Shown: piece after piece, positions 42,961 through 58,087 of the stretch
Numbering within the stretch: the stretch's first letter is position 1
Layout: the number at the start of each line of letters is the position of its first letter
From: a phage
Strand: one strand, 5' to 3'
NCBI GenBank assembly: GCA_014685065.1
Contig: GCA_014685065.1_4092.2
Length of the DNA: 64,000 nucleotides
Notes under the pieces: model-generated
What the model was told of the DNA's origin: nothing
The model's input: only the letters and a program-made list of their open reading frames with translations
Database searches by the model: none
Program-made: the position numbers and the translations under genes

Positions 42961-42984
42961 TCACTTTTAAAAGAGATTAAAACG

Positions 42985-43347: not shown

Positions 43348-43361
43348 GTTTAATAAAGTAC

Positions 43362-43420
43362 TTGCAAACTAAGTTTAAAAGCGTATAATGTTTTACATCA
43401 GGTGGGGAATAGTTCCCCAC
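43362..43420 (+). promoter_or_regulatory. PeSL-like module: TTGCAA-16-TATAAT + stem-loop GTGGGGAATAGTTCCCCAC
   Basis: TTGCAA 43362-43367, TATAAT 43384-43389, hairpin 43402-43420. Confidence 0.65.
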
Positions 43421-43440
43421 TATATAAGAGGATTAAAAAA

Positions 43441-43680
43441 ATGGCTAAATCAAAAATGTTCTTAGGTCACAAAAACAAAACTCAATGGAATGTAAGCCTT
43501 TGGATTAATAACGACGAATCATTATACCGGTTGGCCCAGGACTTTATTGCCGCTAACACTAATCGTAATGATGCGGCCCGTCATATGATGCTATTTTTAG
43601 AACAGACTGGACAAGATAAAACACCGGACGGCTTTAAGTATAGCACTACTGCGATCCGTGCGGCGATGGTTGGAATGTAA
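43441..43680 (+). CDS. hypothetical protein
   Basis: ATG 43441 after GAGGA; track start upstream lies in the hairpin. Confidence 0.55.
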   Translation: MAKSKMFLGHKNKTQWNVSLWINNDESLYRLAQDFIAANTNRNDAARHMMLFLEQTGQDKTPDGFKYSTTAIRAAMVGM

Positions 43681-43762
43681 GAGAATAGATTAAAAGTACT
43701 ATTGCACGGTGATAGTACTTTATAATAGATTTCTTTTATACAACAACGATAGGGGTAACAGC

Positions 43763-44029
43763 ATGAATATTATATACTTTGCAACGCGTGAACTTGCTCG
43801 GATTGCCGCACGCCAGGACGGGGCGACGTTTAAAGATATGGGCGTACAATCTGAACGTGGTAAACGTTGGGCCGTAGTAAAGCAAAGTACAGCCCGATCA
43901 ATTCAGTACTGGCTATCTGCTTTAAAGCGTCCTGATAGTGTATCGCGTCGCGTGGTAGAAATAAAGCACGACCGCAAGGGCAACCGCGTTACTGTGTACA
44001 GTACTAAAAAGATTGCAGTACTTGAATAA
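43763..44029 (+). CDS. hypothetical protein, paralog of 55734 gene
   Basis: FATRELARIAARQDGATFKDMG ... HDRKGNRVTVYS shared with 55734..56129. Confidence 0.55.
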   Translation: MNIIYFATRELARIAARQDGATFKDMGVQSERGKRWAVVKQSTARSIQYWLSALKRPDSVSRRVVEIKHDRKGNRVTVYSTKKIAVLE

Positions 44030-44151
44030 AAGTACTTGACAGTTATCCGGCTTAGTGAGATAATACTTACAAGCCGGACACAAGGCGATAGCCCATAGGG
44101 TGCGGGAGTGTATCTATAGGAAAGTACTAAAAACTATTTTCAAAAAAGTAC

Positions 44152-44179
44152 TTGCAAACTATGTTTAAAGGCGTATAAT
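44152..44179 (+). promoter_or_regulatory. promoter TTGCAA ... TATAAT, upstream of structured element
   Basis: agtacttgcaaactatgtttaaaggcgtataatg. Confidence 0.55.
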
Positions 44180-44180
44180 G

Positions 44181-44262
44181 TTTTACATCAGGACGGGGAA
44201 TGAAATAAGTAACTCCCTGTTAAGTAGTCCAGGAGTAAGACTTACGAAAAACTCCCCTGATA
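44181..44262 (+). ncRNA. structured RNA element, copy A (nested hairpins) between two promoters
   Basis: about 93 percent identical to 54513-54592; stem ACGGGGA/TCCCTGT has G-U where copy B has G-C. Confidence 0.35.
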
Positions 44263-44269
44263 AAATAGT

Positions 44270-44297
44270 TTGACAAAGATTTATAAAAGCGTATAAT
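44270..44297 (+). promoter_or_regulatory. promoter TTGACA-16-TATAAT
   Basis: tttgacaaagatttataaaagcgtataat. Confidence 0.55.
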
Positions 44298-44329
44298 ACT
44301 TACATCAACTAATGAATGAGGGTTACAAA

Positions 44330-44941
44330 ATGAAAACTATCACTACTACTACTTTTGTTATGGCTTTTTCTGAACTGAACGCAGAACAACAAACGGCGGC
44401 TATCGAACTGGTTCGGGATCGGGAACGTGCAAGTGAGGATAATTTCTTTGCTGAGTCAGTACTGGAATACTATAAAGAAACAGTACTGCCAGAATACGGC
44501 ATAGATGAAGCTGAATTGCAATACAGTGGTTTTTGGTCGCAAGGTGACGGTGCATCAATCAGTACTGACCACGTTGACGCTGAGAAGTTTTTACGCAAGG
44601 TTAAGGCGTTAACTAAGTATCGCACTATCCGTCACCTGTTGAACGAAGATGATTTAGAAATGAGTGTAGAACGTTCCCAATCGCGTTATGCACACGAAAA
44701 CACGGTAGGCGGTTGCGTTGATACTCGCTACACTGATTTAACTGTAAAACAGGCTGCATTAGCTGAGGATCTGGAAAACTTACTGACTGATACTATCCGA
44801 GAATTATCTTGTAAGCTGTACCGTGATTTAGAAAATGCTTATGAAGACCAGTTTACTACTGAAAACATTGTAGCACTGATTGAGGGTAACGAATATCAAT
44901 TTAATGTTATCGATGGTGTAGTAGAATCTATCGCATATTAA
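44330..44941 (+). CDS. hypothetical protein
   Basis: ATG 44330 after GAGGG. Confidence 0.55.
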   Translation: MKTITTTTFVMAFSELNAEQQTAAIELVRDRERASEDNFFAESVLEYYKETVLPEYGIDEAELQYSGFWSQGDGASISTDHVDAEKFLRKVKALTKYRTIRHLLNEDDLEMSVERSQSRYAHENTVGGCVDTRYTDLTVKQAALAEDLENLLTDTIRELSCKLYRDLENAYEDQFTTENIVALIEGNEYQFNVIDGVVESIAY

Positions 44942-44999
44942 TTCAGTACTGAATCACTGGCGGGGAATGGTTCCCGCCTATATCCCAGGAGTAAGAGAA

Positions 45000-45236
45000 A
45001 TGATCGAACAAATCAAAACTACAACGCCAAACGTAACGGGTACAGTATCACACTTCATTGGTGACGATTCGCGGGGCGTTCCTTATTGTGCAGTACATGT
45101 AAACCAAAATGGCGACTACTGGCTAACGGTTTACGGTTCTTATTCTTTCGGGCGTAGTGCACACCAAAAGATCCTGGATAAAGTACAGCCAACGGGTAAA
45201 AATATCACCGCTGAGATGTTTTATAAAAAGCACTAA
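45000..45236 (+). CDS. hypothetical protein
   Basis: ATG 45000 after AGGAG; preceded by hairpin GGCGGGGAATGGTTCCCGCC. Confidence 0.5.
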   Translation: MIEQIKTTTPNVTGTVSHFIGDDSRGVPYCAVHVNQNGDYWLTVYGSYSFGRSAHQKILDKVQPTGKNITAEMFYKKH

Positions 45237-45243
45237 AAAGTAC

Positions 45244-45302
45244 TTGCAAAGTAATTAGATTAACGTATAATACTTTATATCGAGAGCGGGAATAGTTCCC
45301 GC
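45244..45302 (+). promoter_or_regulatory. PeSL-like module
   Basis: TTGCAA 45244-45249, TATAAT 45266-45271, hairpin GCGGGAATAGTTCCCGC 45286-45302. Confidence 0.65.
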
Positions 45303-45321
45303 CTTTAATGAGGATTATCTA

Positions 45322-45606
45322 ATGAGCAAAGTAATTAATAGTAAAGTACTAACTAAAACTTTATCTATAACTGAGTGCACCGATGGTTTTTGGCTGTACG
45401 ATGAAACGCGTGGCATGAATTTAGCTATGCAGGAGAAAACTGCTGATGCGGCATATCTTAAAGCACTGGAATACTACCAGAAGCGTTTAAAGGAAGTAGA
45501 AAACGATTATAATAACCTGAAAGCGAAAGTAGATCATTTTGTCGGTCAATTCGTTGACGATGACGAGGACGGGCACTACTGCGACCGTTGCGGATCTTAC
45601 AATTGA
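45322..45606 (+). CDS. hypothetical protein
   Basis: RBS GAGGA; 94 aa. Confidence 0.55.
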   Translation: MSKVINSKVLTKTLSITECTDGFWLYDETRGMNLAMQEKTADAAYLKALEYYQKRLKEVENDYNNLKAKVDHFVGQFVDDDEDGHYCDRCGSYN

Positions 45607-45623
45607 GTACTGAGGATTATCTA

Positions 45624-45827
45624 ATGAGTGATTTAATTGAACGTATCAAAGAGCTTGAAGAAAAAGAATTGCAGTTGATCGGGTTACGGAATAAAGTATT
45701 CCATGATTTAGGTGGCTTCATTAATGCCTGGGATAGTGGCGATCCTGATGCGTTACCTGCTAACCGCCAGGCGATGATCAATGATGTGCGTGGTGTCTTT
45801 GATTATGTTTTAAAGCAATTAAATTAA
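45624..45827 (+). CDS. hypothetical protein
   Basis: ATG 45624 after GAGGA; leader duplicated from upstream gene. Confidence 0.5.
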   Translation: MSDLIERIKELEEKELQLIGLRNKVFHDLGGFINAWDSGDPDALPANRQAMINDVRGVFDYVLKQLN

Positions 45828-45834
45828 AAAAGTA

Positions 45835-45895
45835 CTTGCAATTAGTTTTTAGTACTGTATAATAGTTTACATCAAGGGGGGAAATGGTTCTCCCC
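45835..45895 (+). promoter_or_regulatory. PeSL-like module
   Basis: TTGCAA 45835-45840, TGTATAAT, hairpin GGGGGGAAATGGTTCTCCCC. Confidence 0.65.
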
Positions 45896-45914
45896 ACTAA
45901 TAAGGAGTTTTACA

Positions 45915-46136
45915 ATGGCTAATATCACTACTCTTTCCCAGCTTGAAGCACTGGTTAAATCTATGCGGGCACATGTTGACAGTATCGGCGTAGAAGATCC
46001 GGCTGTATGTTTTTGTGACGAAATAAATGATGATACGCTCGTCATTGCAGAAGTACAAGACGTTTCTAACTATTCATCGCGTTACACTTGCGGAGTATCA
46101 AAGAAAGGTGATTTCTGTTTATATCTTACTAAGTAA
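45915..46136 (+). CDS. hypothetical protein
   Basis: RBS AAGGAG. Confidence 0.55.
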   Translation: MANITTLSQLEALVKSMRAHVDSIGVEDPAVCFCDEINDDTLVIAEVQDVSNYSSRYTCGVSKKGDFCLYLTK

Positions 46137-46304
46137 TACAGAGGGGATCAATTGATCCCCTTTATATTTTTTGTACTGAATCATTTAATAGACGGATCTA
46201 TGCACCCTGTGGGTTAGTGACTATCTCGTCTTTATGTAAGTATTATGCCAGTACTGGATGCAGTTGTCAAGACTTTTTTTTCAAATACTTTTATATCAAA
46301 GTAC

Positions 46305-46360
46305 TTGATAATAGTTTTTAAATGCGTATAATGTTTTACATCTAATCGGGAATACTCCCT
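46305..46360 (+). promoter_or_regulatory. PeSL-like module (TTGATA ... TATAAT, weak hairpin)
   Basis: agtacttgataatagtttttaaatgcgtataatg. Confidence 0.5.
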
Positions 46361-46382
46361 AGTACTAACAAAGGATATACAA

Positions 46383-46682
46383 ATGAAAACTGCAATCATC
46401 GCCCTGGCTTTATCTGTTTCCTCTTTCGCTGTTAACGCTTCCGTTGATGTACCGAAAGAAAAATTCATTCAGTGCACTGTTGCAATGACTAACGAGGAAA
46501 CGGCTGAGATCGTTACCAAATCCCTGGAACTGGCCCCTGCAATGTTTGCTAATGGCCCGTACCATGAAGAAGATGATCAGGGTAGCACGACCATCTATTA
46601 CGATGCAAAAAGTAAACGCGGTTCTGTCACTGTAATGGATACAGAGAAAGTTACATTCACTGGCGTAATTAATTGTTTATAA
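46383..46682 (+). CDS. secreted hypothetical protein
   Basis: signal peptide MKTAIIALALSVSSFAVNA. Confidence 0.55.
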   Translation: MKTAIIALALSVSSFAVNASVDVPKEKFIQCTVAMTNEETAEIVTKSLELAPAMFANGPYHEEDDQGSTTIYYDAKSKRGSVTVMDTEKVTFTGVINCL

Positions 46683-46695
46683 TATAGTACTGAAT

Positions 46696-46728
46696 CACTA
46701 GCCCACTATAAGCAGTGGGCTTTTTTGT
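46696..46728 (+). terminator. intrinsic terminator
   Basis: AGCCCACT-ataagc-AGTGGGCT + T6. Confidence 0.7.
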
Positions 46729-46780
46729 TTTTGTAGTATTGTAGTACTGGTATACTTTGAAAATAGTTTTAAAAAAGTAG

Positions 46781-46808
46781 TTGACATTACCAGGGAAAAG
46801 CGTAGAAT
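46781..46808 (+). promoter_or_regulatory. promoter TTGACA ... TAGAAT
   Basis: agttgacattaccagggaaaagcgtagaatg. Confidence 0.5.
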
Positions 46809-46922
46809 GTATTACATCAAGACGGGGAACATTAAGTAGACCGCCAGTAAGTCGAATGAAAAACTGGACACGTCAATAAAACTTTGATAAACTAACTTAA
46901 ACTTTAATTGAGGATTTATAAA

Positions 46923-47405
46923 ATGGCTAATGTAAAATCATTTCTGAAAGCACTGATTTCTAACGATACTGTTATTGCTGCTGAATTGCTGGCTGACCTG
47001 GATAATGATACCATGAAAGCAGTACGCAACAATTTTAACATTGCTTACAGTGAAGCGAAAGAACTACAAGCCAAAAAGGTAGCAGAACTGGAAGAACAGA
47101 AAAAAGCCCGTGAAGCAGAACTGCAAGCAACAATAGAAAGTATTCAGGCGGCGGTGTCTGGTTTAGATCTGGAAGTGGTTATTGAAATGGCACATAAAGC
47201 CCTGGCGGTTAAGTACGGTGAAGATAAGCCGGAATCTAAGCCTAAAAAATGGATTCAAGAACGTGTTACGGTTGTCCTTGATAACGGGGAAGAACATTTG
47301 ATTCCTGTACGCGGTAACTGCATTGCGGTAGTACTAGATGCAATCAAAGAAAGCGGTATGACTCGCGAGGAATGGATCGAAGCTCACCGCAAAGTTGAAG
47401 CATAA
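46923..47405 (+). CDS. hypothetical protein with coiled-coil-like acidic/basic stretch
   Basis: ATG 46923 after GAGGA. Confidence 0.55.
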   Translation: MANVKSFLKALISNDTVIAAELLADLDNDTMKAVRNNFNIAYSEAKELQAKKVAELEEQKKAREAELQATIESIQAAVSGLDLEVVIEMAHKALAVKYGEDKPESKPKKWIQERVTVVLDNGEEHLIPVRGNCIAVVLDAIKESGMTREEWIEAHRKVEA

Positions 47406-47424
47406 CAATTAAAGTACTGAATCA

Positions 47425-47452
47425 CTAGCCCACTTATACAGTGGGCTTTTTT
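47425..47452 (+). terminator. intrinsic terminator
   Basis: AGCCCACT-tatac-AGTGGGCT + T6. Confidence 0.7.
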
Positions 47453-47606
47453 GTGTCTATAGTATTCCATGCCGTCAGCACCTCATAGAATCGATTCTAA
47501 CGCATTAAACTGATTATCTGATGCATCGCCCTAGCTGGTGGAGTTAAGGCCGTTAGAATGCGATTGAGAGTGTTAAAAGTATTTTACAAAAAGTAATAAA
47601 AAGTAC

Positions 47607-47634
47607 TTGCACGATTCAGAGATTAGCGTATAAT
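47607..47634 (+). promoter_or_regulatory. promoter TTGCAC ... TATAAT
   Basis: agtacttgcacgattcagagattagcgtataatg. Confidence 0.5.
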
Positions 47635-47679
47635 GTTTTACATCAAGGCGAAACACCTTAACTAACTGAGGATATAAAG

Positions 47680-47832
47680 ATGAATACTTATGAACTGGAT
47701 TGTTTCACTATGCAAGTAATGTTAGTATGCAGTAAAAAAGAATGGTCATCAAAGGAATTTAAAGCAGTTATTGCATGTTCAAAAAAAGGTAAGTCTATTA
47801 TTGAAACGGCAGCTATCGTAGATAGTCTTTAA
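47680..47832 (+). CDS. small hypothetical protein (50 aa)
   Basis: hand-called: RBS GAGGA, ATG 47680, stop 47830. Confidence 0.35.
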   Translation: MNTYELDCFTMQVMLVCSKKEWSSKEFKAVIACSKKGKSIIETAAIVDSL

Positions 47833-47840
47833 AAAATAGT

Positions 47841-47868
47841 TTGACAATAGTTTTAAGTACTGACATAA
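47841..47868 (+). promoter_or_regulatory. promoter TTGACA ... CATAAT
   Basis: tttgacaatagttttaagtactgacataat. Confidence 0.5.
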
Positions 47869-47902
47869 TACATACATCAACTACTGAATAGGAATCAAAA
47901 CA

Positions 47903-48130
47903 ATGGCTATCGTAATCACTCGCGTATCTGGTACTACTGGCAATTCTTCTACTGTTGCTGTAATTACTAATAAGAAAGGTGCGGAATTACATTTTGCAAT
48001 GAATACCTGGGCGGTGAATGAGTTCGGTCAGTGGGCTAGTGTAGAATACATTGAAACCTATCAAGTGCCAACCATTAGCTTAACGGATCTCGGCGTAGAT
48101 CGTATCTTATGCCTGGATGAATTAAACTAA
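47903..48130 (+). CDS. hypothetical protein
   Basis: RBS AGGAA. Confidence 0.5.
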   Translation: MAIVITRVSGTTGNSSTVAVITNKKGAELHFAMNTWAVNEFGQWASVEYIETYQVPTISLTDLGVDRILCLDELN

Positions 48131-48137
48131 AAAGTAC

Positions 48138-48197
48138 TTGCAAAGTAAATCGGATAAAGTATAATACATTACATCAAGGGGAGAAATGATTCTCCCC
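48138..48197 (+). promoter_or_regulatory. PeSL-like module
   Basis: TTGCAA 48138-48143, TATAAT 48160-48165, hairpin GGGGAGAAATGATTCTCCCC 48178-48197. Confidence 0.65.
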
Positions 48198-48215
48198 ACT
48201 AAGAGGAAACTAAAA

Positions 48216-48359
48216 ATGAAAACTTGTCAATGTGGTAAAAAATCTATCACTGGTTTGAAACGGGGCGTTGCTCTTTGTCAGTATCACTATAACGCTCAAG
48301 TATGGGGTAAAGAGTGGGCCGACCAGGTGGAAGCAATAAAGAAAGCAAAAAGTAAGTAA
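48216..48359 (+). CDS. small Cys-containing protein (47 aa), possible zinc ribbon
   Basis: hand-called: RBS AGAGGA, ATG 48216; CQCG ... C..H pattern. Confidence 0.35.
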   Translation: MKTCQCGKKSITGLKRGVALCQYHYNAQVWGKEWADQVEAIKKAKSK

Positions 48360-48443
48360 AATTATTATCACAGTACTATTGACATAGATTGATAGTACTG
48401 GCATAATAGATTTTATCAAGACAACTAAGAGGAAACAAAAATG
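48349..48443 (+). repeat. about 95-bp direct repeat, copy 1 (gene end + promoter + leader)
   Basis: near-identical to 48649-48737, including AGTACTATTGACATAG(A/T)TTGATAGTACTGGCATAAT. Confidence 0.6.
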
Positions 48444-48653
48444 GCTATCATTACAAAAATCAAAGTAAACAATTCACTGGTTAAACTGGAACAAGTGAAA
48501 GCGGGTTATAAAGTATCATGGTGCGGAATGTATCGGATGTTCGCAGATATTGACGATGCAATCAAATATTATACTGATACGGTTGCTAACTTTGTTCGTG
48601 CTGATGTAGTGATGGCAGTTGCACAACATAAAGCATCAAAGCAAAGTAAGTAA
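48441..48653 (+). CDS. hypothetical protein
   Basis: RBS AGAGGAAA. Confidence 0.55.
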   Translation: MAIITKIKVNNSLVKLEQVKAGYKVSWCGMYRMFADIDDAIKYYTDTVANFVRADVVMAVAQHKASKQSK

Positions 48654-48737
48654 AATTATTATCACAGTACTATTGACATAGTTTGATAGTACTGGCATAA
48701 TAGATTTTATCAAGACAACTAAGAGGAAATTAAAATG
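48649..48737 (+). repeat. about 95-bp direct repeat, copy 2
   Basis: see copy 1. Confidence 0.6.
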
Positions 48738-49079
48738 GCTAACATCAACACTATCTCAGCACAAAATATCAACCTGTCTTCTGTTGAAGTTGTACATATT
48801 GCCGCTCGGCGTTGGTTCCAGGCTTCATATGGTAACACTTATTTCTCTTTAAGTGTAGACGTAGAAATTGATGGTAATTTTATTGAAGTAGTAAACGTGC
48901 CGTTCCAATATGGATACGGGGATCACTTTGACACTGTAGCAATGGAAGAATTTAGCAAGGTTATTAATATGGAAGATAAAGAGTTTTTACGCGGTTCTTA
49001 TCTTTCCCGTTTTTGCCGTGACAATAATATCACTGTTTACAGTTCGGTAACTGATGTTAAACGCAAAAAAGATCTTTAA
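48735..49079 (+). CDS. hypothetical protein, paralog of 55311 gene
   Basis: shares GNTY(F/H)S ... YGYG ... VKRKKD(L/M) with 55311..55634. Confidence 0.55.
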   Translation: MANINTISAQNINLSSVEVVHIAARRWFQASYGNTYFSLSVDVEIDGNFIEVVNVPFQYGYGDHFDTVAMEEFSKVINMEDKEFLRGSYLSRFCRDNNITVYSSVTDVKRKKDL

Positions 49080-49159
49080 TTAGCTTTACTTTATGCAGAT
49101 ACTTTGATATAGTGTCTGCATAGGGGAAAGAAATTAAATCAAATTAAGAGGATAGTAAA

Positions 49160-49429
49160 ATGAAAAATATCAGTACTTTAATCGATGCAGGTACTCATGT
49201 TCGTCGGTCAATGGTTGCAACCAGTACTACAAAACAAGTAGCAAGCGGTTATCTTGTATTTGTACACGAAGGAAAGCTATTGGAACGTTCAATCAATTTT
49301 GATGTTAAAAACAATTGCCGTTTTATTATTTTTAAGCGTGAACAATATAAAATTGATTTGCCAGCAAAGCCCATTAGCGGGGCGTACAACGTGCAATCAT
49401 TGTTTGAGCGTCAACCATACACCTATTAA
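49160..49429 (+). CDS. hypothetical protein
   Basis: RBS AGAGGA. Confidence 0.5.
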   Translation: MKNISTLIDAGTHVRRSMVATSTTKQVASGYLVFVHEGKLLERSINFDVKNNCRFIIFKREQYKIDLPAKPISGAYNVQSLFERQPYTY

Positions 49430-49480
49430 TCAAAACATCGTTAGCGGTCGATTTAGGCCGCTTATATTGGGGATTATACC

Positions 49481-49651
49481 ATGAACGTTAATCAAGTACT
49501 GAATGAAGTTGAAAGCATCATTAAACCAATGAAACGTATTGATGCTGTTCCTACACCGGAAGAATGCCGCCTTTATGAGCGTTACAGTGTGGAACAAGCC
49601 CAGGAAATGGCCCGTATCCGTCCGGTTGCCAGTACTGATAAGGCGGCGTAA
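49481..49651 (+). CDS. small hypothetical protein (56 aa)
   Basis: hand-called: RBS GGGGA, ATG 49481; replaces N-terminal part of track ORF 49539. Confidence 0.4.
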   Translation: MNVNQVLNEVESIIKPMKRIDAVPTPEECRLYERYSVEQAQEMARIRPVASTDKAA

Positions 49652-49652
49652 T

Positions 49653-49859
49653 ATGCTTACTGTACAGGATAAGATCGACATCTTAAAGGTTAATATGTAT
49701 GTGATTGATGCAGATCCTGAAAAAGTATTTGCATACGATGATTCTAATCGTAGTCCTTTTTATTGTAGTCATGTAGTTGGATACGTGCCGTTAGCGTATG
49801 TTATCGAAAGAGTGGTTGATTCAGCTTATAAACATTACTTAGAAAGTACTTGCAATTAG
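49653..49859 (+). CDS. hypothetical protein
   Basis: ATG 49653 right after previous stop; 3' end overlaps next promoter. Confidence 0.45.
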   Translation: MLTVQDKIDILKVNMYVIDADPEKVFAYDDSNRSPFYCSHVVGYVPLAYVIERVVDSAYKHYLESTCN

Positions 49860-49910
49860 TTTTCAGTACTGTATAATTGTTTACATAGAGGGGGGGAATG
49901 GTTCTCCCCG
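49850..49910 (+). promoter_or_regulatory. PeSL-like module
   Basis: TTGCAA 49850-49855, TGTATAAT 49870-49877, hairpin GGGGGGGAATGGTTCTCCCC. Confidence 0.65.
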
Positions 49911-49927
49911 ATACTAGGAGAAACAAA

Positions 49928-50080
49928 ATGAAACAATATAACGCTCGGTTTGATGTTACTATCGGTAACGGGAAAGGTCAGTACTCTTTCAGTACTCGTA
50001 AAAGTTATACAGAAAACTTCCTGCGTAATTGTGCACTGACCGCCGCACAAATTAAACATTACTTTCAGGCTAAAAAATGA
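49928..50080 (+). CDS. small hypothetical protein (50 aa)
   Basis: ATG 49928 after AGGAGA. Confidence 0.5.
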   Translation: MKQYNARFDVTIGNGKGQYSFSTRKSYTENFLRNCALTAAQIKHYFQAKK

Positions 50081-50166
50081 AATCATTAGCTTACTATAGT
50101 TCGGCCCTGGTCGGTGCAGTACTGGCGGCATTGTTAGTAACCTATCTATTCTTTATGGTGATTTAA
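50077..50166 (+). CDS. 29-aa hydrophobic peptide
   Basis: ATGA overlap; single TM-like segment. Confidence 0.3.
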   Translation: MKSLAYYSSALVGAVLAALLVTYLFFMVI

Positions 50167-50304
50167 ATGAATCCAAATAATATTATCTATCCTAACGCTA
50201 AAACGAAAGCAGATAAGGTAAACGCAAAAAAAGCGAAAGTAAAGCAGTACATCAAGCAAGGCATGACACGCAAAGCGGCATTGCTTAAAGCTAAAAATAA
50301 ATGA
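50167..50304 (+). CDS. 45-aa Lys-rich peptide
   Basis: ATG directly after previous stop; followed by terminator module. Confidence 0.3.
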   Translation: MNPNNIIYPNAKTKADKVNAKKAKVKQYIKQGMTRKAALLKAKNK

Positions 50305-50310
50305 AAAAAG

Positions 50311-50342
50311 TGGTTGACTTCGGTCAGCCATTTTGCTATTAT
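50311..50342 (+). terminator. bifunctional terminator/promoter module
   Basis: TGGTTGACTTCGGTCAGCCA + TTTTGCTATTAT. Confidence 0.65.
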
Positions 50343-50366
50343 ATATTCATTGAGAGATAGCTCACT

Positions 50367-50392
50367 AGCCCACAGGGTGCAGGAATGTATCT
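50367..50392 (+). repeat. conserved element AGCCCACAGGGTGCAGGAATGTATCT
   Basis: same element near 44093, 52048, 54401, 57711, 59965 and inverted near 46197. Confidence 0.5.
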
Positions 50393-50446
50393 ATTGTATA
50401 ATGATTGAGTACTGAAAACTATTTTAAAGTATTTGATAAAAAGTAC

Positions 50447-50506
50447 TTGCAAACTATCTCAATAAGCGTATAATGTTTTACATCGCAAGGGGAAACGGTT
50501 TCCCCT
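50447..50506 (+). promoter_or_regulatory. PeSL-like module
   Basis: TTGCAA, TATAAT 50469-50474, hairpin AGGGGAAACGGTTTCCCCT. Confidence 0.65.
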
Positions 50507-50525
50507 GGTAATAAGGAAACGAATC

Positions 50526-50867
50526 ATGACTATTGCAATTGCTCAATCTAACTTTGAAAACGAAATCATCGCTCAGGCACTGCGTTTAAATGATGGTCGG
50601 GCCGAAATCAATTACGGTTTCAATAGTGGTGGATGTGAAAAATATCAGTACTTTGTAACGGCTGATGGCTGTGTCCTGGGTATCAATACAGTTATTGTAA
50701 ACATTCAGAAAATTAATTTCAATGATCCAGACGATAGCCAGTTTTACATCACGGGCGTAGACGTGAACTACGAAGATGATTCCTTAACTGATGATTACAC
50801 TGGCGAGAAGTTAGAAAGTGCATACGGTGAGGATGATTATCAGTCCGGTCCAGAAGATTTTGAATAA
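50526..50867 (+). CDS. acidic hypothetical protein
   Basis: RBS AAGGAAA. Confidence 0.55.
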   Translation: MTIAIAQSNFENEIIAQALRLNDGRAEINYGFNSGGCEKYQYFVTADGCVLGINTVIVNIQKINFNDPDDSQFYITGVDVNYEDDSLTDDYTGEKLESAYGEDDYQSGPEDFE

Positions 50868-50881
50868 TATTAAAAAATAGT

Positions 50882-50940
50882 TTGACAATAGTTTCCAGTA
50901 CTGTATAATTAATTACATCAAGGGGAGAATAGTTCTCCCC
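50882..50940 (+). promoter_or_regulatory. PeSL-like module (near-identical to 51154-51212)
   Basis: TTGACA 50882-50887, TATAAT 50904-50909, hairpin GGGGAGAATAGTTCTCCCC 50922-50940. Confidence 0.7.
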
Positions 50941-50962
50941 ACTAACAGAGAGAGAAAACAAA

Positions 50963-51145
50963 ATGGCTGAATTAATCGCTCGGAATACAATTGCAGGCGT
51001 TGAAGATGTAACATTATCATATGATTCAGATAAACAAGTTTACGTCATTCGTTATGGTCTGATTGGTGTTAACGTTGATTCAATTGACGAAGCCTTTGAA
51101 AAATACTTTGAATTTATCAACCTGGCTTATGATGATTATCGTTAA
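50963..51145 (+). CDS. hypothetical protein
   Basis: RBS AGAGAGA; flanked by duplicate PeSL modules. Confidence 0.55.
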   Translation: MAELIARNTIAGVEDVTLSYDSDKQVYVIRYGLIGVNVDSIDEAFEKYFEFINLAYDDYR

Positions 51146-51153
51146 AAAATAGT

Positions 51154-51212
51154 TTGACAATAGTTTTAAGTACTGTATAATTAATTACATCAAGGGGAGA
51201 ATAGTTCTCCCC
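51154..51212 (+). promoter_or_regulatory. PeSL-like module (duplicate of 50882-50940)
   Basis: TTGACA 51154-51159, TATAAT 51176-51181, hairpin 51194-51212. Confidence 0.7.
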
Positions 51213-51229
51213 ACTAAGAGGAAAACAAA

Positions 51230-51448
51230 ATGGCTAATATCCGCACTGTACTGAAAAATGCAAAACAAGTTTTATTTTCTGACGATGAATATTTTAATCG
51301 CAATATCAAAGGCGTTCGGAACATTGAGGATGTAAAGGAATTATTTGGAATCAAAGGTAACGTATATCGTAAAGGATTGCACGGTAATCATTTTGAATAT
51401 AAGTTAGCTGATAGTGATTATAACTTTACACTGACTATCATTAACTAA
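51230..51448 (+). CDS. hypothetical protein
   Basis: RBS AGAGGAAA. Confidence 0.55.
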   Translation: MANIRTVLKNAKQVLFSDDEYFNRNIKGVRNIEDVKELFGIKGNVYRKGLHGNHFEYKLADSDYNFTLTIIN

Positions 51449-51540
51449 AAATATTATCACAGTACTATTGACAACTGCCGATAGTACTGGCATAATAACT
51501 TTTATCAACAGTAGTTAACTTAACCTAAGAGAGAAACATC

Positions 51541-51684
51541 ATGACAGCATTAGATTCATTCATCGACGCAGTACTGGCAAAAACTGGCGAGGATCTGACC
51601 GCAGAACAATACGCGATGATCGAGCAATGCCAGCAAAACGGTAAATCGGTGAAAGATACTGTTAAGATTATCCGCAAGATGTAA
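51541..51684 (+). CDS. small hypothetical protein (47 aa)
   Basis: hand-called: RBS AGAGAGA, ATG 51541; followed by terminator-like hairpin. Confidence 0.35.
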   Translation: MTALDSFIDAVLAKTGEDLTAEQYAMIEQCQQNGKSVKDTVKIIRKM

Positions 51685-51789
51685 GAATATAGCCCACTGG
51701 TTAACGCTGGTGGGCTTTAATCATTTACCCTATACAATGCCAGTACTAAACCGTTTATCTCGTTAGAATGCGTTACAGGACGTTTAACA

Positions 51790-51987
51790 ATGATTAGCAT
51801 GAAATCAGTACAAAAACAAATTGATACATTATCAAAAATTAAACGTAAACAGTACTCCTTAGAATATACAATCAATGGTAACTATCATCTAATGAAAGAA
51901 AATAATTTTATAGTCATTGATGAATCATTGCAAATCATTAGTATAGTACTGAAAGCATTAATCAATGACAGAAAAAAGTTAAAATAA
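51790..51987 (+). CDS. hypothetical protein
   Basis: RBS AGGA. Confidence 0.45.
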   Translation: MISMKSVQKQIDTLSKIKRKQYSLEYTINGNYHLMKENNFIVIDESLQIISIVLKALINDRKKLK

Positions 51988-51991
51988 TCTA

Positions 51992-52020
51992 TTGACAATA
52001 TTATCCAGTACTGGCATAAT
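51992..52020 (+). promoter_or_regulatory. promoter TTGACA ... GCATAAT
   Basis: attgacaatattatccagtactggcataat. Confidence 0.5.
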
Positions 52021-52079
52021 ACTTACATCAAGACGAGAACGTCACTAACCCATAGGGTGCACAAATGTAACTGTATAAT

Positions 52080-52120
52080 ATTGATCAAAAAATGATCTGA
52101 TCAATACTTGATCAATTTGC
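52080..52120 (+). promoter_or_regulatory. cluster of three TTGATCA half-palindromes, candidate operator
   Basis: ttgatcaaaaaatgatctgatcaatacttgatcaatttg. Confidence 0.4.
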
Positions 52121-52318
52121 GTAAAGTAGTATAATTCTATGCAGTTGGTTAGACGAAAGGTTATGATTAGTAGTGGAAGTGTATAAAAATTTTCATGGTG
52201 TGGTGATCCGCACATATGGGGATGAATATGTCGTGTCGTATGGATTGGAAAAAGTAAGAACAAGTAATATACTTGTCGCGTTACAGTACTATAGTAATTT
52301 TATAATGAGGTTAAAATA

Positions 52319-52576
52319 ATGGCTGTAGGATTCACGAAAGATGGGGCCGAGCAAGACGAGATTAACGCAGTGATTCAGGCCGCTGTTAACCACGCTAGAA
52401 CGCAAATTAACGCACAAATAGAATCACTGATACATTGCCTCGACTGCGGCGATAAAATCCCTGAGAATCGCCGCCAGGCAGTTAAGGGGTGTAAGTACTG
52501 CATCACTTGCCAGGCTGATCATGATAGCATATTCAAACGCAATCCCCGTAATTGTTGGCATAGATCTATGAGATAA
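52319..52576 (+). CDS. TraR/DksA-family C4 zinc-finger protein
   Basis: CLDCGDKIPENRRQAVKGCKYCITCQ matches the CxxC-(17)-CxxC TraR/DksA pattern. Confidence 0.65.
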   Translation: MAVGFTKDGAEQDEINAVIQAAVNHARTQINAQIESLIHCLDCGDKIPENRRQAVKGCKYCITCQADHDSIFKRNPRNCWHRSMR

Positions 52577-52581
52577 AAAGT

Positions 52582-52610
52582 ATTGACAGTGCTGTTAGTT
52601 AGTGTATAAT
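52582..52610 (+). promoter_or_regulatory. promoter TTGACA-17-TATAAT
   Basis: TTGACA 52582-52587, TATAAT 52605-52610. Confidence 0.55.
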
Positions 52611-52639
52611 ATTTTATATCTTAACTGAGGATTGAAATC

Positions 52640-52996
52640 ATGGGTATACAACATATCACGCGTACTACAGACAATGGTGAGATCACTGGCTATCAAGTAC
52701 AAGGCAAAGTAGCACAATTGCAGTACTGGTTTGTTAAACGTGGCATTGTTGCACCAGATCTTGATTATAATCGTGTAGCGTTTATTGATTCTCTTTATGT
52801 TGATCCCGATAATCGCGGTAACGGTGAAGGTACTGAATTAATGAATGCCTTTATTGATGCCGCCGATGATTCAGATTGTATCATCTTAGAATGCGATACG
52901 GGAGAAGATAACGCATTTAATCTTAAAGAATGGTATGAAAGTTTTGGTTTTGAAGTGCTGATGGACTGCGAATATCCTATAATGATTTTATCCTAG
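52640..52996 (+). CDS. putative small GNAT-like acetyltransferase
   Basis: motif-A-like DNRGNGEGTELM, then WYESFGF. Confidence 0.4.
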   Translation: MGIQHITRTTDNGEITGYQVQGKVAQLQYWFVKRGIVAPDLDYNRVAFIDSLYVDPDNRGNGEGTELMNAFIDAADDSDCIILECDTGEDNAFNLKEWYESFGFEVLMDCEYPIMILS

Positions 52997-52999
52997 TAC

Positions 53000-53058
53000 T
53001 TGCAATTAGTTTTAAGTACTGTATAATAGTTTACATGAAGGGGAGAATAGTTCTCCCC
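53000..53058 (+). promoter_or_regulatory. PeSL-like module
   Basis: TTGCAA 53000-53005, TATAAT 53022-53027, hairpin 53040-53058. Confidence 0.65.
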
Positions 53059-53075
53059 ACTACAAGGAAAGACAA

Positions 53076-53264
53076 ATGCAAAACTTATCAAGTATTTTAG
53101 TACAAGATGATTTCGGTAATCCTGGAAGTGCTATCATTGTTCGGGGTAATAAAGCAACATTTGTTATTGCTGGTGGACCTGTACAGCGTAGCATTAAAAA
53201 CAATGCAGTTACAATCAATAATGTTCGCTATCGCTTGGATAAAGAATTGATTCATAAACTGTAA
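53076..53264 (+). CDS. hypothetical protein
   Basis: RBS AAGGAAA. Confidence 0.5.
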   Translation: MQNLSSILVQDDFGNPGSAIIVRGNKATFVIAGGPVQRSIKNNAVTINNVRYRLDKELIHKL

Positions 53265-53291
53265 TATTAATTTAATAGAGGATAAAAATAA

Positions 53292-53615
53292 ATGTATATT
53301 CATACTACTATCACAAAAGAAGTTCGTTGTCAATTCGAAAGTATCCCTGGTGTATGTTTCATTACAGGCACTTTCTCACCTGGTGACCGTGATAATCCAG
53401 TACTGTTACAGTTACGCCATCCATTATGGGATAAAGCATTTGATCTGCCGTTGAATGAATTCGCAACCACTGCTGATAAGTACATTAAAAATATTCGCGA
53501 GAATGATTGCCTATTCATTAATGCTTTTAGTGATGCCGCGTTAAGTGAGATCCATGCTGTATTGGTTGCAATCATGGAATCAATGGAGAAAACTATATTC
53601 AAACAAGGTGAATAA
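53292..53615 (+). CDS. hypothetical protein
   Basis: RBS AGAGGA. Confidence 0.55.
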   Translation: MYIHTTITKEVRCQFESIPGVCFITGTFSPGDRDNPVLLQLRHPLWDKAFDLPLNEFATTADKYIKNIRENDCLFINAFSDAALSEIHAVLVAIMESMEKTIFKQGE

Positions 53616-53621
53616 AAACTA

Positions 53622-53680
53622 TTGACAATGTAATCTAGTACTGTATAATAGTTTACATGAAGGGGAGAAATGATTCTCCC
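53622..53680 (+). promoter_or_regulatory. PeSL-like module
   Basis: TTGACA 53622-53627, TATAAT 53645-53650, hairpin GGGGAGAAATGATTCTCCCC. Confidence 0.65.
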
Positions 53681-53698
53681 CACTAAGAGGAAAGAAAC

Positions 53699-53911
53699 AT
53701 GCAAGGTCAACTAATCGTTCGTAAATGGTCTGATACTAACGAAAAACCGTGGGATGTTCAATATATCGGACCGGACGGTGTTTCACGTTATCAACCTGGC
53801 GTAACGCATAGTACTGAGCAATATGCCGCCGCTCACCGTGAACGCCTGTTAGAATCTATGAAACAGGGATTCTGTGAAAAATTCATTCAAGATCATTGGC
53901 TGAAAGATTAA
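53699..53911 (+). CDS. hypothetical protein
   Basis: RBS AGAGGAAA. Confidence 0.55.
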   Translation: MQGQLIVRKWSDTNEKPWDVQYIGPDGVSRYQPGVTHSTEQYAAAHRERLLESMKQGFCEKFIQDHWLKD

Positions 53912-53928
53912 TAGAAGGAGTACAGCTT

Positions 53929-54021
53929 ATGCAAATGAATCCGATGATTGTTGTGTTAGCTGTACTTATGGTCATTCATGCCATCGTAGAAGTACTAACA
54001 CAATCAGGAGTAATACAATGA
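53929..54021 (+). CDS. 30-aa hydrophobic peptide
   Basis: hand-called: RBS AGGAG, ATG 53929. Confidence 0.3.
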   Translation: MQMNPMIVVLAVLMVIHAIVEVLTQSGVIQ

Positions 54022-54188
54022 TCCAGGTGGAATTATCAGTACTGAAAGATCTGTTTTATCGGTTAGGCACTACTGGCGAATACCCTAAAGGGGATACTGC
54101 TAAACTATACATTGCATTGGATGTATGGCAACGTAATGAACTGGCTAACGCCTGGCGTAAAGGTAAATCAGAGGGGATTGCAGCATGA
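54018..54188 (+). CDS. small hypothetical protein (56 aa)
   Basis: hand-called: ATGA overlap. Confidence 0.35.
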   Translation: MIQVELSVLKDLFYRLGTTGEYPKGDTAKLYIALDVWQRNELANAWRKGKSEGIAA

Positions 54189-54334
54189 AAGAATTCTTAT
54201 TCGAAGTAGTGTTCCAGGGCGTAGGAAGTAACCAACTGATTCGATCAAGTGGTTACAATGTTAACCAGGCATGGAATAACATTAAACAAATGTACCCGAA
54301 CGCTATCACATATCGCAACCCAAAACAAGTTTAA
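54185..54334 (+). CDS. small hypothetical protein (49 aa)
   Basis: hand-called: ATGA overlap; followed by terminator module. Confidence 0.35.
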   Translation: MKEFLFEVVFQGVGSNQLIRSSGYNVNQAWNNIKQMYPNAITYRNPKQV

Positions 54335-54348
54335 AAAGAATTAAAAAA

Positions 54349-54381
54349 GGGATTGACTCCGGTCAGTCCCTTTGCTATTAT
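54349..54381 (+). terminator. bifunctional terminator/promoter module (GGGATTGACTCCGGTCAGTCCC variant)
   Basis: hairpin 54349-54370 + TTTGCTATTAT. Confidence 0.65.
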
Positions 54382-54481
54382 ATACGCATAGAAACAAATC
54401 AGCCCACAGGGTGCATAAATGTATCTATTATATGCTGGTGGCTAGTACTATCAAGTACTGAAAACTATTTTTAAAAAGTAC

Positions 54482-54509
54482 TTGCAAAGTATCACGATAA
54501 GCGTATAAT
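54482..54509 (+). promoter_or_regulatory. promoter TTGCAA-16-TATAAT upstream of structured element copy B
   Basis: TTGCAA 54482-54487, TATAAT 54504-54509. Confidence 0.55.
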
Positions 54510-54512
54510 GTT

Positions 54513-54592
54513 TTACATCAGGACGGGGAACGAAACAAGTAACTCCCCGTTAAGTAGTCCAGGAGTAAGACATACGAAAACCTCCCCTGATA
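54513..54592 (+). ncRNA. structured RNA element, copy B
   Basis: perfect ACGGGGA/TCCCCGT stem plus second GGAG/CTCC hairpin; see copy A at 44181. Confidence 0.35.
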
Positions 54593-54599
54593 AAATAGT

Positions 54600-54628
54600 T
54601 TGACAATACCAAGTAAACGAGTATAATA
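54600..54628 (+). promoter_or_regulatory. promoter TTGACA-17-TATAAT
   Basis: TTGACA 54600-54605, TATAAT 54623-54628. Confidence 0.55.
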
Positions 54629-54657
54629 CTTACATCAACCACAAAGAGGAATACAAA

Positions 54658-54858
54658 ATGAAACATTTTACTTTCGGTGTAGTAGGCTTTACAGTATCCA
54701 GCGGCGTTTATAAATCAGAACGCGGTGCTAAAAATGCAGCAAGTCGGGCGTATGGTTCACAGCGTGACTTACAGGTCGGTTATATTAGTAACATTAATAA
54801 CATGTTTATTCCTGTTTCACAGCGTAAAGCGGGTAACATGAAATGGGAAACAATTTGA
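54658..54858 (+). CDS. hypothetical protein
   Basis: RBS AGAGGAA. Confidence 0.5.
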   Translation: MKHFTFGVVGFTVSSGVYKSERGAKNAASRAYGSQRDLQVGYISNINNMFIPVSQRKAGNMKWETI

Positions 54859-54867
54859 TAAAATAGT

Positions 54868-54926
54868 TTGACAATAGTTTTTAGTACTGTATAATAGTTT
54901 ACATCAAGTGGGGAATAGTTCCCCAC
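54868..54926 (+). promoter_or_regulatory. PeSL-like module
   Basis: TTGACA 54868-54873, TATAAT 54890-54895, hairpin GTGGGGAATAGTTCCCCAC. Confidence 0.65.
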
Positions 54927-54947
54927 CTAACAAAGAGAGAAATTAAA

Positions 54948-55223
54948 ATGCGGATTCTACTGACAGCTAACGAAATCGAGCAAGTACTGACTACTAACCT
55001 GGAAGACTGGAAACGTGATGCAGATATCCAGGCGGTGCAATGGCTCAATGATAAGTTAACGCCGGATGATTTAAGTAAGATTGTAGATCCACAATTCTAT
55101 GAAGATATTCACGACACGGCTTTAAGCGTCGAGGATGTACTTGATAAGCACTACATTGATATTGATTTGCAGGTTTACGGTCGTAAAAACTTTATCACTA
55201 TTCACGACATTTATAATAATTAA
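54948..55223 (+). CDS. acidic hypothetical protein
   Basis: RBS AGAGAGA. Confidence 0.55.
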   Translation: MRILLTANEIEQVLTTNLEDWKRDADIQAVQWLNDKLTPDDLSKIVDPQFYEDIHDTALSVEDVLDKHYIDIDLQVYGRKNFITIHDIYNN

Positions 55224-55226
55224 GTA

Positions 55227-55286
55227 TTGACAAAGTATCTTAGTACTGTATAATAGTTTACATCAAGGCAGGGGAATGGTTCCCCT
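55227..55286 (+). promoter_or_regulatory. PeSL-like module
   Basis: TTGACA 55227-55232, TATAAT 55249-55254, hairpin AGGGGAATGGTTCCCCT. Confidence 0.65.
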
Positions 55287-55310
55287 CCTAACTAAAAGAG
55301 AGAAATTAAA

Positions 55311-55634
55311 ATGACTATGATCCTTACCCAGAAAGTAGAAATGAAAATTGTAACTTCCTTTGACATTAAAGTTAATCGGTGGACTGATAGCCACGGCAAT
55401 ACTTACCACTCATGCTACGTGTCTGCATTGATTGGTGACCGCTGGGAAGACCTGGGACATGAAACCTTTACTTACGGTTACGGTACACAAGGCGAATACA
55501 CGGGCTTGGAGATCATTAAAGAAACTGTAATAGGTTTCAACCCGAAAGAGAAAGTACTACACAGAATTGAGGATGAGATCAACAAAGAAATTACAGTTCG
55601 TTACTACGATGTAAAACGTAAGAAAGACATGTAA
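55311..55634 (+). CDS. hypothetical protein, paralog of 48735 gene
   Basis: GNTYHS ... YGYG ... VKRKKDM. Confidence 0.55.
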   Translation: MTMILTQKVEMKIVTSFDIKVNRWTDSHGNTYHSCYVSALIGDRWEDLGHETFTYGYGTQGEYTGLEIIKETVIGFNPKEKVLHRIEDEINKEITVRYYDVKRKKDM

Positions 55635-55656
55635 TAGAATCCATTTAAAGTACTAT

Positions 55657-55685
55657 TTGACATTGCCCAGATAGTACTTTATAAT
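55657..55685 (+). promoter_or_regulatory. promoter TTGACA-17-TATAAT flanked by AGTACT
   Basis: agtactatttgacattgcccagatagtactttataat. Confidence 0.55.
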
Positions 55686-55733
55686 AGACTCTAACTTGTA
55701 GTACTAATTAACTTAACTAATAGGATGTACACC

Positions 55734-56129
55734 ATGATTACTAAATTCTTCGCTACCCGTGAACAAGCTCGCATCGTTGCTCGTGAAGAAGGTGAAACAT
55801 TTAAAGACATGGGCAAAGATGCACCGAAAGGACAACGCTGGGCGGTACAGTTCAAAGAGATCTCTGATATTGTGAATTCACCTGAGCCTGTACTTACTGA
55901 AGCAGAACTGAAGAAAGCTCAAGAACTGGCTGAAGTACTGAACGCTCAAGATGACTTCTTGGAAGGTTCTGATATTGAAGTTACAGTTAACGCAAATGCA
56001 TGGACTCACGCGGATCACCTGGCAAACCTTAAGCGTCCAAGTGAACTGATTCGTAACCAGAAAGAGATCCGTCATGACCGTAAAGGAAACCGTGTAACAG
56101 TATACAGTAAACGCCGCCAGGTTATCTAA
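55734..56129 (+). CDS. hypothetical protein, paralog of 43763 gene with insertion
   Basis: FATREQARIVAREEGETFKDMG ... RHDRKGNRVTVYS. Confidence 0.55.
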   Translation: MITKFFATREQARIVAREEGETFKDMGKDAPKGQRWAVQFKEISDIVNSPEPVLTEAELKKAQELAEVLNAQDDFLEGSDIEVTVNANAWTHADHLANLKRPSELIRNQKEIRHDRKGNRVTVYSKRRQVI

Positions 56130-56150
56130 TAACTTTGCAGTACTAACAAC

Positions 56151-56176
56151 ACGGCGGGAATAGTTCCCGCCTTTTT
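56151..56176 (+). terminator. intrinsic terminator
   Basis: GGCGGGAATAGTTCCCGCC + T6. Confidence 0.7.
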
Positions 56177-56192
56177 TATAGGATAAACTAAA

Positions 56193-56447
56193 ATGATGAA
56201 GGTACAACTATCTAAAGATAATATCTTGCGGGTACACTATAAAGCACCACAGAGAATCATCACAAAGGCCGTACAGCTTGCTAATGAGTTTATTAATGGT
56301 AGTCTATTACCCAGGAAGTTAAGCAACGGGAAACTACGTGTTATCGATGTAGACACTAACAATAGAATAGTAATTGAGAGTACTGGAAAAATTAATCTAT
56401 ATGAACACCAACAATACAATAAAAAAATAAAACTAATATCACGTTGA
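56193..56447 (+). CDS. hypothetical protein
   Basis: RBS AGGA. Confidence 0.5.
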   Translation: MMKVQLSKDNILRVHYKAPQRIITKAVQLANEFINGSLLPRKLSNGKLRVIDVDTNNRIVIESTGKINLYEHQQYNKKIKLISR

Positions 56448-56471
56448 CAGTACTCAATTGTTTTAGTATTA
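56444..56471 (+). promoter_or_regulatory. promoter TTGACAGTACTCAA ... TATTAT (homologous to 56722)
   Basis: two genes with unrelated products share this promoter/leader. Confidence 0.5.
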
Positions 56472-56503
56472 TGTATCTATACCAACACAGAGAGAGAAAC
56501 AAA

Positions 56504-56722: not shown

Positions 56723-56750
56723 TTGACAGTACTCAAATGTTTTAGTACTA
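56722..56750 (+). promoter_or_regulatory. promoter TTGACAGTACTCAA ... TACTAT
   Basis: homologous to 56444. Confidence 0.5.
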
Positions 56751-56779
56751 TGTACGCATACCAACACGGGGAAAACAAA

Positions 56780-57022: not shown

Positions 57023-57053
57023 TATAGTTTCATTAACTCAAGGAGTCAACACA

Positions 57054-58084: not shown

Positions 58085-58087
58085 GTA

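Follow-up and report, generated by a model that had tools for sequence, protein, structure and literature searches.

Old paralogy and later recombination as the probable history of two families of small genes in the terminal-repeat block of an Asteriusvirus jumbo coliphage

An early-gene block in a jumbo phage terminal repeat

Phage T5 carries small host-takeover pre-early genes, read from host-type promoters, in a long direct terminal repeat (DTR), which is the first of its DNA to enter the cell. In T4-type phages, promoter-early stem-loop (PeSL) cassettes and modular shuffling have been described (Arbiol et al. 2010, PMC2839356; Comeau et al. 2014, PMC4122927). For the RaK2-like phage CBB, clustered RpoD-like promoters with UP-like elements have been reported, extending into a terminal repeat of about 22 kb (Buttimer et al. 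2017, PMC5259590). We analysed a 64,000-nucleotide (nt) stretch of phage DNA (NCBI GenBank assembly GCA_014685065.1, contig GCA_014685065.1_4092.2; hereafter "the window"), and in it four small plus-strand genes forming two pairs, A1/A2 and B1/B2. An initial sequence-only reading had taken them as dispersed paralogs within a "PeSL block", produced by cassette duplication and relocation across 7-12 kb. With a probability that we put at roughly 0.72, we interpret them instead as two families of short accessory genes in the Asteriusvirus DTR, whose old paralogy was reshaped by later recombination and which were not recently copied and moved.

Nucleotide matches between the region at 43-57 kb and the genomes of Asteriusvirus jumbo coliphages, among them 121Q, PBECO4 and phAPEC6, are patchy, at 88-95% identity; the gene order follows that of 121Q, where A1 corresponds to gp268, the B1 slot to gp282, B2 to gp303 and A2 to gp304. 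On these matches we assign the window phage to the Asteriusvirus (121Q/PBECO4-like) jumbo coliphages. Position 1 of the annotated DTR of vB_Ec-M-J (21,525 bp) falls at window position 41305, with collinearity beyond 61 kb; the DTR of fEgEco12, 20,993 bp long, has been confirmed by restriction digests (PMC13070987); and records that retain both repeats give four places per query gene. All four genes therefore lie inside the DTR-equivalent block, which consists of a run of tiny plus-strand genes, most with a near-consensus sigma-70 promoter upstream. Phages of this type probably have the physical end of their genome at window 41305, and the repeat would stop near 61.4 kb, just ahead of a tandem array of genes of about 70 amino acids (aa). 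The block, the four open reading frames (ORFs) and the replaced segment discussed below are as follows (RBS, ribosome-binding site).

41305..61400 (approximate), plus strand: DTR-equivalent block of small, early-type plus-strand genes including all four studied here; mapped from vB_Ec-M-J
43763..44029, plus strand: A1, 88 aa, short family A member in slot 1, without the central linker; ORF, 94% to 121Q gp268, phrog_8127
48735..49079, plus strand: B1, 114 aa, family B, Stephanstirmvirinae-type allele in the B1 slot; phrog_6246 and identities to phAPEC6, ESCO5 and 121Q
48752..49053, plus strand: segment replaced relative to 121Q, wholly within the B1 ORF; from the nucleotide homology break
55311..55634, plus strand: B2, 107 aa, resident family B member adjoining A2; 100% to 121Q gp303, phrog_6246
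55734..56129, plus strand: A2, 131 aa, long family A member in slot 2, directly 3' of B2; ORF, RBS and start, 98% to 121Q gp304, phrog_8127

The T5 pre-early region serves as an analogy only; no sequence relationship was found, and Asteriusvirus is not known to take its DNA in stepwise. The resemblance to the T4-type PeSL regions is closer: dense, near-identical sigma-70 promoters, AT-rich in their upstream parts and about half of them with a G/C-rich stem-loop, stand directly 5' of small ORFans, and the region is hyperplastic, near relatives differing there by gene-sized indels and replacements. The label "PeSL block" is thus fair as a description. The present genome, however, belongs to a RaK2-like jumbo phage, in which the block forms the direct terminal repeat; the usual hairpin is placed in the transcribed leader, without a T-run; three of the four studied genes (A1, A2 and B1) have hairpin-less promoters; and the only precisely mapped replacement, at B1, breaks inside the ends of the ORF and not in the cassettes. 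CBB likewise has RpoD-like promoters 5' of short hypothetical genes in its terminal repeat, and paralogous ORFs were noted there; the portion of that account considered here contains no description of families A and B, of hairpin cassettes or of allele replacement from another subfamily (PMC5259590).

The two paralog pairs and the probable replacement of the B1 allele

The four ORFs have annotated counterparts in relatives (121Q gp268, gp303 and gp304; phAPEC6 gp525), and the motifs on which the pairs had been proposed were found in the four proteins. A1 and A2 share 35% identity by BLASTP (E 2e-21), A2 carrying a 45-residue insertion, and their Smith-Waterman score of 165 compares with a shuffle mean of 26.9 (z = 29.6); at the nucleotide level their similarity is confined to about 190 nt at 69%. 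B1 and B2 share 30% identity over their full length (E 1e-10; shuffle z = 15.5). With the Lys-rich tail of pair B removed, its sole low-complexity part, z was still 11.5, so the likeness is not a low-complexity artefact, whilst cross-family shuffle controls gave z < 2. Each pair matches a single PHROG over its full length: phrog_8127 for A1 (E 1.9e-27) and A2 (E 1.7e-37), phrog_6246 for B1 (E 6.4e-43) and B2 (E 2.4e-37). Neither is annotated in PHROGs v4, and membership is uninformative on function. Full-length family alignments reveal motifs that are invariant over dozens of homologs, in family B a W, GNTY.S, YGYG and a C-terminal RKKDL. Across 42-57 kb, all-against-all BLASTP returned A1/A2 and B1/B2 as the only paralog pairs, and profile hidden Markov models run against the six-frame translation of the 64 kb recovered exactly two members per family. 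By sequence comparison, we regard both pairs as true, ancient paralogs. All four slots are conserved in 121Q and over about 37 Asteriusvirus records, and because of this genus-wide conservation and of the 30-35% identity within pairs, the duplication events would predate the radiation of the genus.

Family A retains traces of a longer history. A single homolog of 109-121 aa is present in each of RaK2, GAP32, fHe-Yen9-04 and Av-05, whilst EJP2, a divergent Asteriusvirus, has both slots, occupied by gp516 (125 aa, slot 1) and gp016 (98 aa, slot 2). EJP2 gp016 lies directly 3' of the family B gene gp015, so that the B-then-A adjacency occurs there as well. Since EJP2 holds both slots, the family A duplication would predate the split between EJP2 and 121Q. 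In the C-terminal block, A1 is 89% identical to gp516, as compared to 60% for A2; the linker of A2 is 69% identical to that of gp516; and in the N-terminal block A2 shares 92% identity with RaK2 gp353 and 61% with A1. These values identify A1 as the slot-1 ortholog, an internally deleted form of the long protein still found in slot 1 of EJP2. Family A is found as one copy across RaK2-like jumbo genera. We posit that it was duplicated into slots 1 and 2 before the Asteriusvirus radiation, and that the 88-aa A1 came about when about 40-45 linker codons were deleted from the copy in slot 1 of 121Q-like phages. The N-terminal and linker segments are discordant with the C-terminal one, which points to segmental exchange or to very uneven rates; either could explain it.

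At B1 the picture is one of replacement. Around this gene the window and 121Q are 95-96% identical at the nucleotide level, but homology ends at 48751 and restarts at 49054, both inside the ORF. A four-way alignment displays a common promoter and ATGGCTAA on the left and a common ATGTTAAACGCAAAAAAGATCTTTAA on the right. The encoded protein is 98% identical to phAPEC6 gp525 and 84% identical (83% at the nucleotide level, with a nearly identical central stretch of about 110 nt) to ESCO5_00005 of a Phapecoctavirus, as compared to 34% for 121Q gp282 in the same slot and 30% for B2. Genes of the window type were found in more than 130 Stephanstirmvirinae-type records at 77-83% nucleotide identity and in about nine Asteriusvirus genomes at 92-99%, the remaining genomes carrying the 121Q type. 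In a neighbour-joining (NJ) tree of family B (500 bootstrap replicates, 106 columns), B1 groups with the Stephanstirmvirinae type at 100% and B2 groups with gp282 and EJP2_015 at 78%, whilst B1 with B2 received 0%; B2, gp282 and EJP2_015 also have indels in common. The paralogs are thus not each other's closest relatives, as is also seen for the N-terminal block of A2, nearer to RaK2 gp353 than to A1.

Because homology breaks off within the ends of the ORF, between 95%-identical flanks and around a divergent body, we interpret the present B1 as a xenologous allele that has replaced a resident allele of the 121Q gp282 type. B2 would be the resident, highly conserved copy of the family (92-100% identity across the genus), and the B1 slot, which EJP2 lacks, would have arisen in 121Q-like phages by an old duplication within an Asteriusvirus-specific clade. 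Roughly one genome in four, that of the window among them, would then have had the body of its B1 ORF swapped for a homolog from the Stephanstirmvirinae coliphage type of about 145-150 kb, via homologous recombination anchored in the conserved 5' end and promoter and in the 3' codons (VKRKKDL). For A1/A2, as for the ancestral B1 slot of the 121Q type, this evidence is best read as old in-genome duplication. To that extent, as something that happened long ago to family A and in that ancestral slot, the proposed cassette duplication and relocation survives; it does not apply to the present B1.

Several points weigh against this interpretation. The direction of the B1 transfer is read from prevalence only. 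No donor is present in the database, where the best match to B1 outside Asteriusvirus reaches 83% at the nucleotide level. Given this distance, and with the window-type allele itself diverged to 92% within the genus, the exchange is not recent. The grouping of B2, gp282 and EJP2_015 has just 78% support in a simple NJ tree. For family A, the mosaic may reflect unequal constraint, the N-terminal domain being very conserved, and not recombination; independent shortening in two lineages, without conversion, would also fit.

The alternative that survives best is that the four genes are separate morons drawn from the phage gene pool, with no duplication in this lineage. We consider it improbable, although the size of family B (1973 representatives at E <= 0.001, about 2000 clusters at 50% identity), its clear exchange between phage groups, the missing B1 slot of EJP2 and the occurrence of several neighbouring genes in Phapecoctavirus all speak for it. 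It is countered by the Asteriusvirus-specific group with common indels formed by B2, gp282 and EJP2_015, by the family-specific linker and promoter variant that the family A copies have in common, and by the outgroup genera, which hold one A copy in the equivalent region. Beyond the four genes, the window genes at 42985-43347, 43402-43680 and 47903-48130 have homologs at 72-75% nucleotide identity around the ESCO5 B gene, in a different order (ESCO5 positions 2505-3963). Given these three further ESCO5 homologs, early cassettes appear to be shared generally between Asteriusvirus and Stephanstirmvirinae.

Promoter cassettes and the question of recent duplication

The regulatory elements around the four genes are listed below.

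43702..43726, plus strand: promoter-like element 5' of A1 (TTGCAC, 13-nt spacer, TATAAT); seen in the sequence, not picked up by the promoter scan
44036..44300 (also delimited as 44030-44315), plus strand: composite intergenic promoter module 3' of A1, with copies at 50285-50530, 54325-54660 and 57630-57870; repeat families D13, D14, D15 and D17, and alignment
48673..48701, plus strand: B1 promoter (TTGACA, 17 nt, TG-extended CATAAT), hairpin-less; promoter scan
55227..55286, plus strand: PeSL-like cassette 5' of B2 (TTGACA, 16 nt, TATAAT, then leader hairpin AGGGGAATGGTTCCCCT); repeat and promoter scans
55657..55685, plus strand: A2 promoter (TTGACA, 17 nt, TATAAT), without leader hairpin; 12/12 consensus match
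56153..56171, plus strand: terminator-like hairpin GGCGGGAATAGTTCCCGCC followed by a T-run, 3' of A2; terminator scan

Plus-strand consensus promoter matches are concentrated in the block, with 33 of 42 at 41.6-60.5 kb and 9 elsewhere in the window. A promoter repeat family of 18 copies has the form AAAGTACTTGCAA/TTGACA-N16-TATAAT with AT-rich upstream sequence. Of the 33 promoters in the block, 15 precede a perfect leader hairpin rich in G/C, for example GGGGAGAATAGTTCTCCCC, which is itself followed by an RBS; these leader hairpins have no T-run and are not obvious terminators. Other block promoters have stems over the -35 or the -10 element. Comparison of the 95 nt upstream of 38 block genes placed the standard hairpin promoter of B2, the only one among the four studied genes, closest to those of genes 54948 and 58170, whilst A1, A2 and B1 belong to one common hairpin-less subclass. 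A1 and A2 have about 90 nt of upstream sequence in common at roughly 70%; the alignment is interrupted by 5 nt in the spacer and agrees at 19 of 19 positions of GATAGTACTTTATAATAGA, in the -10 region. The A1 element is a mis-spaced copy of the A2 promoter, left with a 13-nt spacer after a 5-nt deletion, and may be inactive; A1 may therefore depend on read-through, for which the cassette at 43362 is a possible source. Since the promoter subclasses cut across the gene families, and since the A1 copy is altered, promoters and gene bodies assort independently.

Local repetition is also evident 5' of B1, where a 125-nt repeat (D9; 48349-48473 and 48643-48767, 89% identical) precedes both gene 48441-48653 and its adjacent neighbour B1. 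The repeat spans the promoter, the RBS and the first codons, ATGGCTA, and the two downstream genes are otherwise unrelated. At B1, the replacement boundaries (48751 and 49054) do not coincide with cassettes. An insertion relative to 121Q at 53265-53613 has a promoter cassette at its right edge and the stop codon of the upstream gene at its left edge; gene 53292-53615 (107 aa), at this insertion, is missing from 121Q. After A1, 121Q holds about 530 extra nt (gp269 and gp270).

These repeats bear on a second alternative, in which a promoter-gene cassette was recently copied over 7-12 kb, flanks included, possibly through PeSL-like recombination. The block is rich in repeated promoter and hairpin elements able to mediate such events, the A1/A2 upstream match is perfect over the -10 region, and a promoter segment was locally duplicated before B1 and its neighbour. 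Several findings speak against it: protein identity is 30-35%, the nucleotide similarity of pair A is short and low, the identical arrangement is fixed across the genus, B1 clusters with another phage subfamily, and the promoter subclasses do not track the gene families. The flanks give the same answer, as the genes neighbouring the paralogs all belong to different PHROGs, none is duplicated and no further paralog pair exists at 42-57 kb; co-duplication of flanking modules, which the sequence-only reading had left to be checked, did not occur. The "duplicated modules" that it cited are real as repeats, but they are many-copy intergenic promoter elements unlinked to the paralogs. Recent duplication is largely refuted for B1/B2, and for A1/A2 the two A slots of EJP2 suggest a split before the EJP2/121Q divergence. 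Low identity, unduplicated neighbours and genus-wide slots lead us to reject recent duplication with co-duplicated flanks as very unlikely.

The weakest alternative, a chance or compositional likeness between unrelated small AT-rich ORFs, could be invited by the shortness of the genes and the Lys-rich end of family B, but the shuffle z-scores (29.6 and 15.5, or 11.5 without the tail, against controls below 2), the PHROG common to each pair (E < 1e-27) and full-length alignments with invariant motifs across dozens of homologs leave it a negligible probability, and it was rejected.

Old paralogy followed by recombination places this case within ordinary phage mosaicism; neither the element nor the mechanism is of a new kind. 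It provides a mapped example of how an ORFan-rich jumbo-phage early region changes, through old duplication, internal deletion and gene-body replacement, in which the replacing homolog would come from a different phage subfamily infecting the same host. It also suggests that the PeSL-type promoter and hairpin architecture, described for T4-like phages, recurs in a RaK2-like jumbo terminal repeat.

Some block promoters carry further conserved features. A box, CCCAYAGGGTGC, is present in seven copies, in both orientations, about 30-40 nt 3' of short consensus promoters.

44090-44122, 50367-50399, 54401-54433 and 57710-57742, plus strand: box CCCAYAGGGTGC, conserved repeat
42380-42449, 42595-42664 and 46179-46248, minus strand: box CCCAYAGGGTGC, conserved repeat

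The box had zero Rfam matches, and its consensus stem is just 4 bp with covariation absent, on which grounds a small-RNA interpretation was dropped; the box might instead serve as a binding site for a protein or correspond to a short transcript. In a promoter variant at 50307-50334, 54346-54373 and 57650-57677, a 12-bp stem (AAAGGGATTGACTCC..GGTCAGTCCCTTT) encloses the -35 hexamer, an arrangement that resembles one PeSL subclass of T4-type phages, in which stem-loop and -35 overlap.

Possible functions and neighbouring genes

Searches for function returned little. Pfam gave no match for the four proteins or for 31 diverse family B members; among 10 long fused metagenomic homologs searched, Pfam matches to InPase and GNAT lie outside the B domain, may be gene-calling fusions and were set aside. 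NCBIfam and PADLOC gave no match for families A and B, PDB sequence profiles matched neither family, and a collection of plasmids held no homolog of either. The gene context of two distant B homologs consists only of arrays of small unknown phage genes. A literature search retrieved no paper on families A and B or on exchange between Asteriusvirus and Phapecoctavirus.

Structure prediction with AlphaFold2 (AF2) gave a B1 model with a predicted local distance difference test (pLDDT) score of 84 and a predicted template modelling (pTM) score of 0.77, in which three strands are followed by two helices and one last strand. The A2 model (pLDDT 72, pTM 0.31) begins with a small strand-helix-strand-strand unit at the N-terminus and ends in a C-terminal beta-hairpin, the two being joined by a variable helical linker. 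Foldseek against the PDB returned nothing at E<=0.001, and the family A model is without a fold match.

Each of A2, B1 and B2 is preceded by a sigma-70-type promoter of its own, and early transcription by the host RNA polymerase is presumed on that ground. From their location and promoters, our best guess is that families A and B are small non-enzymatic host-interaction proteins, acting in takeover or counter-defence. A bolder proposal, which we regard as unlikely, is that the DTR acts as an exchangeable bank of early-gene cassettes shared with the unrelated Stephanstirmvirinae coliphages of about 150 kb, with A and B as counter-defence or host-takeover effectors whose copies are kept for different host variants; if true, an arms race would have left its signature in the deep split of B1 into two types inside a single genus. 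As widespread, phage-only and uncharacterised families with confident or partly confident models, A and B are reasonable candidates for functional screens.

The only block genes with a recognisable family encode a DksA-like zinc-finger protein (52319-52576) and a GNAT acetyltransferase (52640-52996), both plausible as early host-transcription or host-modification factors. Outside the block, the minus strand at 25493-37079 carries nine to ten paralogous genes of 270-430 aa (pairwise E down to 1e-69), the EJP2 counterparts of which are annotated as RCC1-like "GTPase regulator" or BNR-repeat proteins. On the plus strand, 37634-41041 and 61467-63872 contain two tandem arrays of mutually paralogous genes of about 60-70 aa, often with overlapping stop and start codons, and in 121Q the array at 61467-63872 runs on for several more kilobases.

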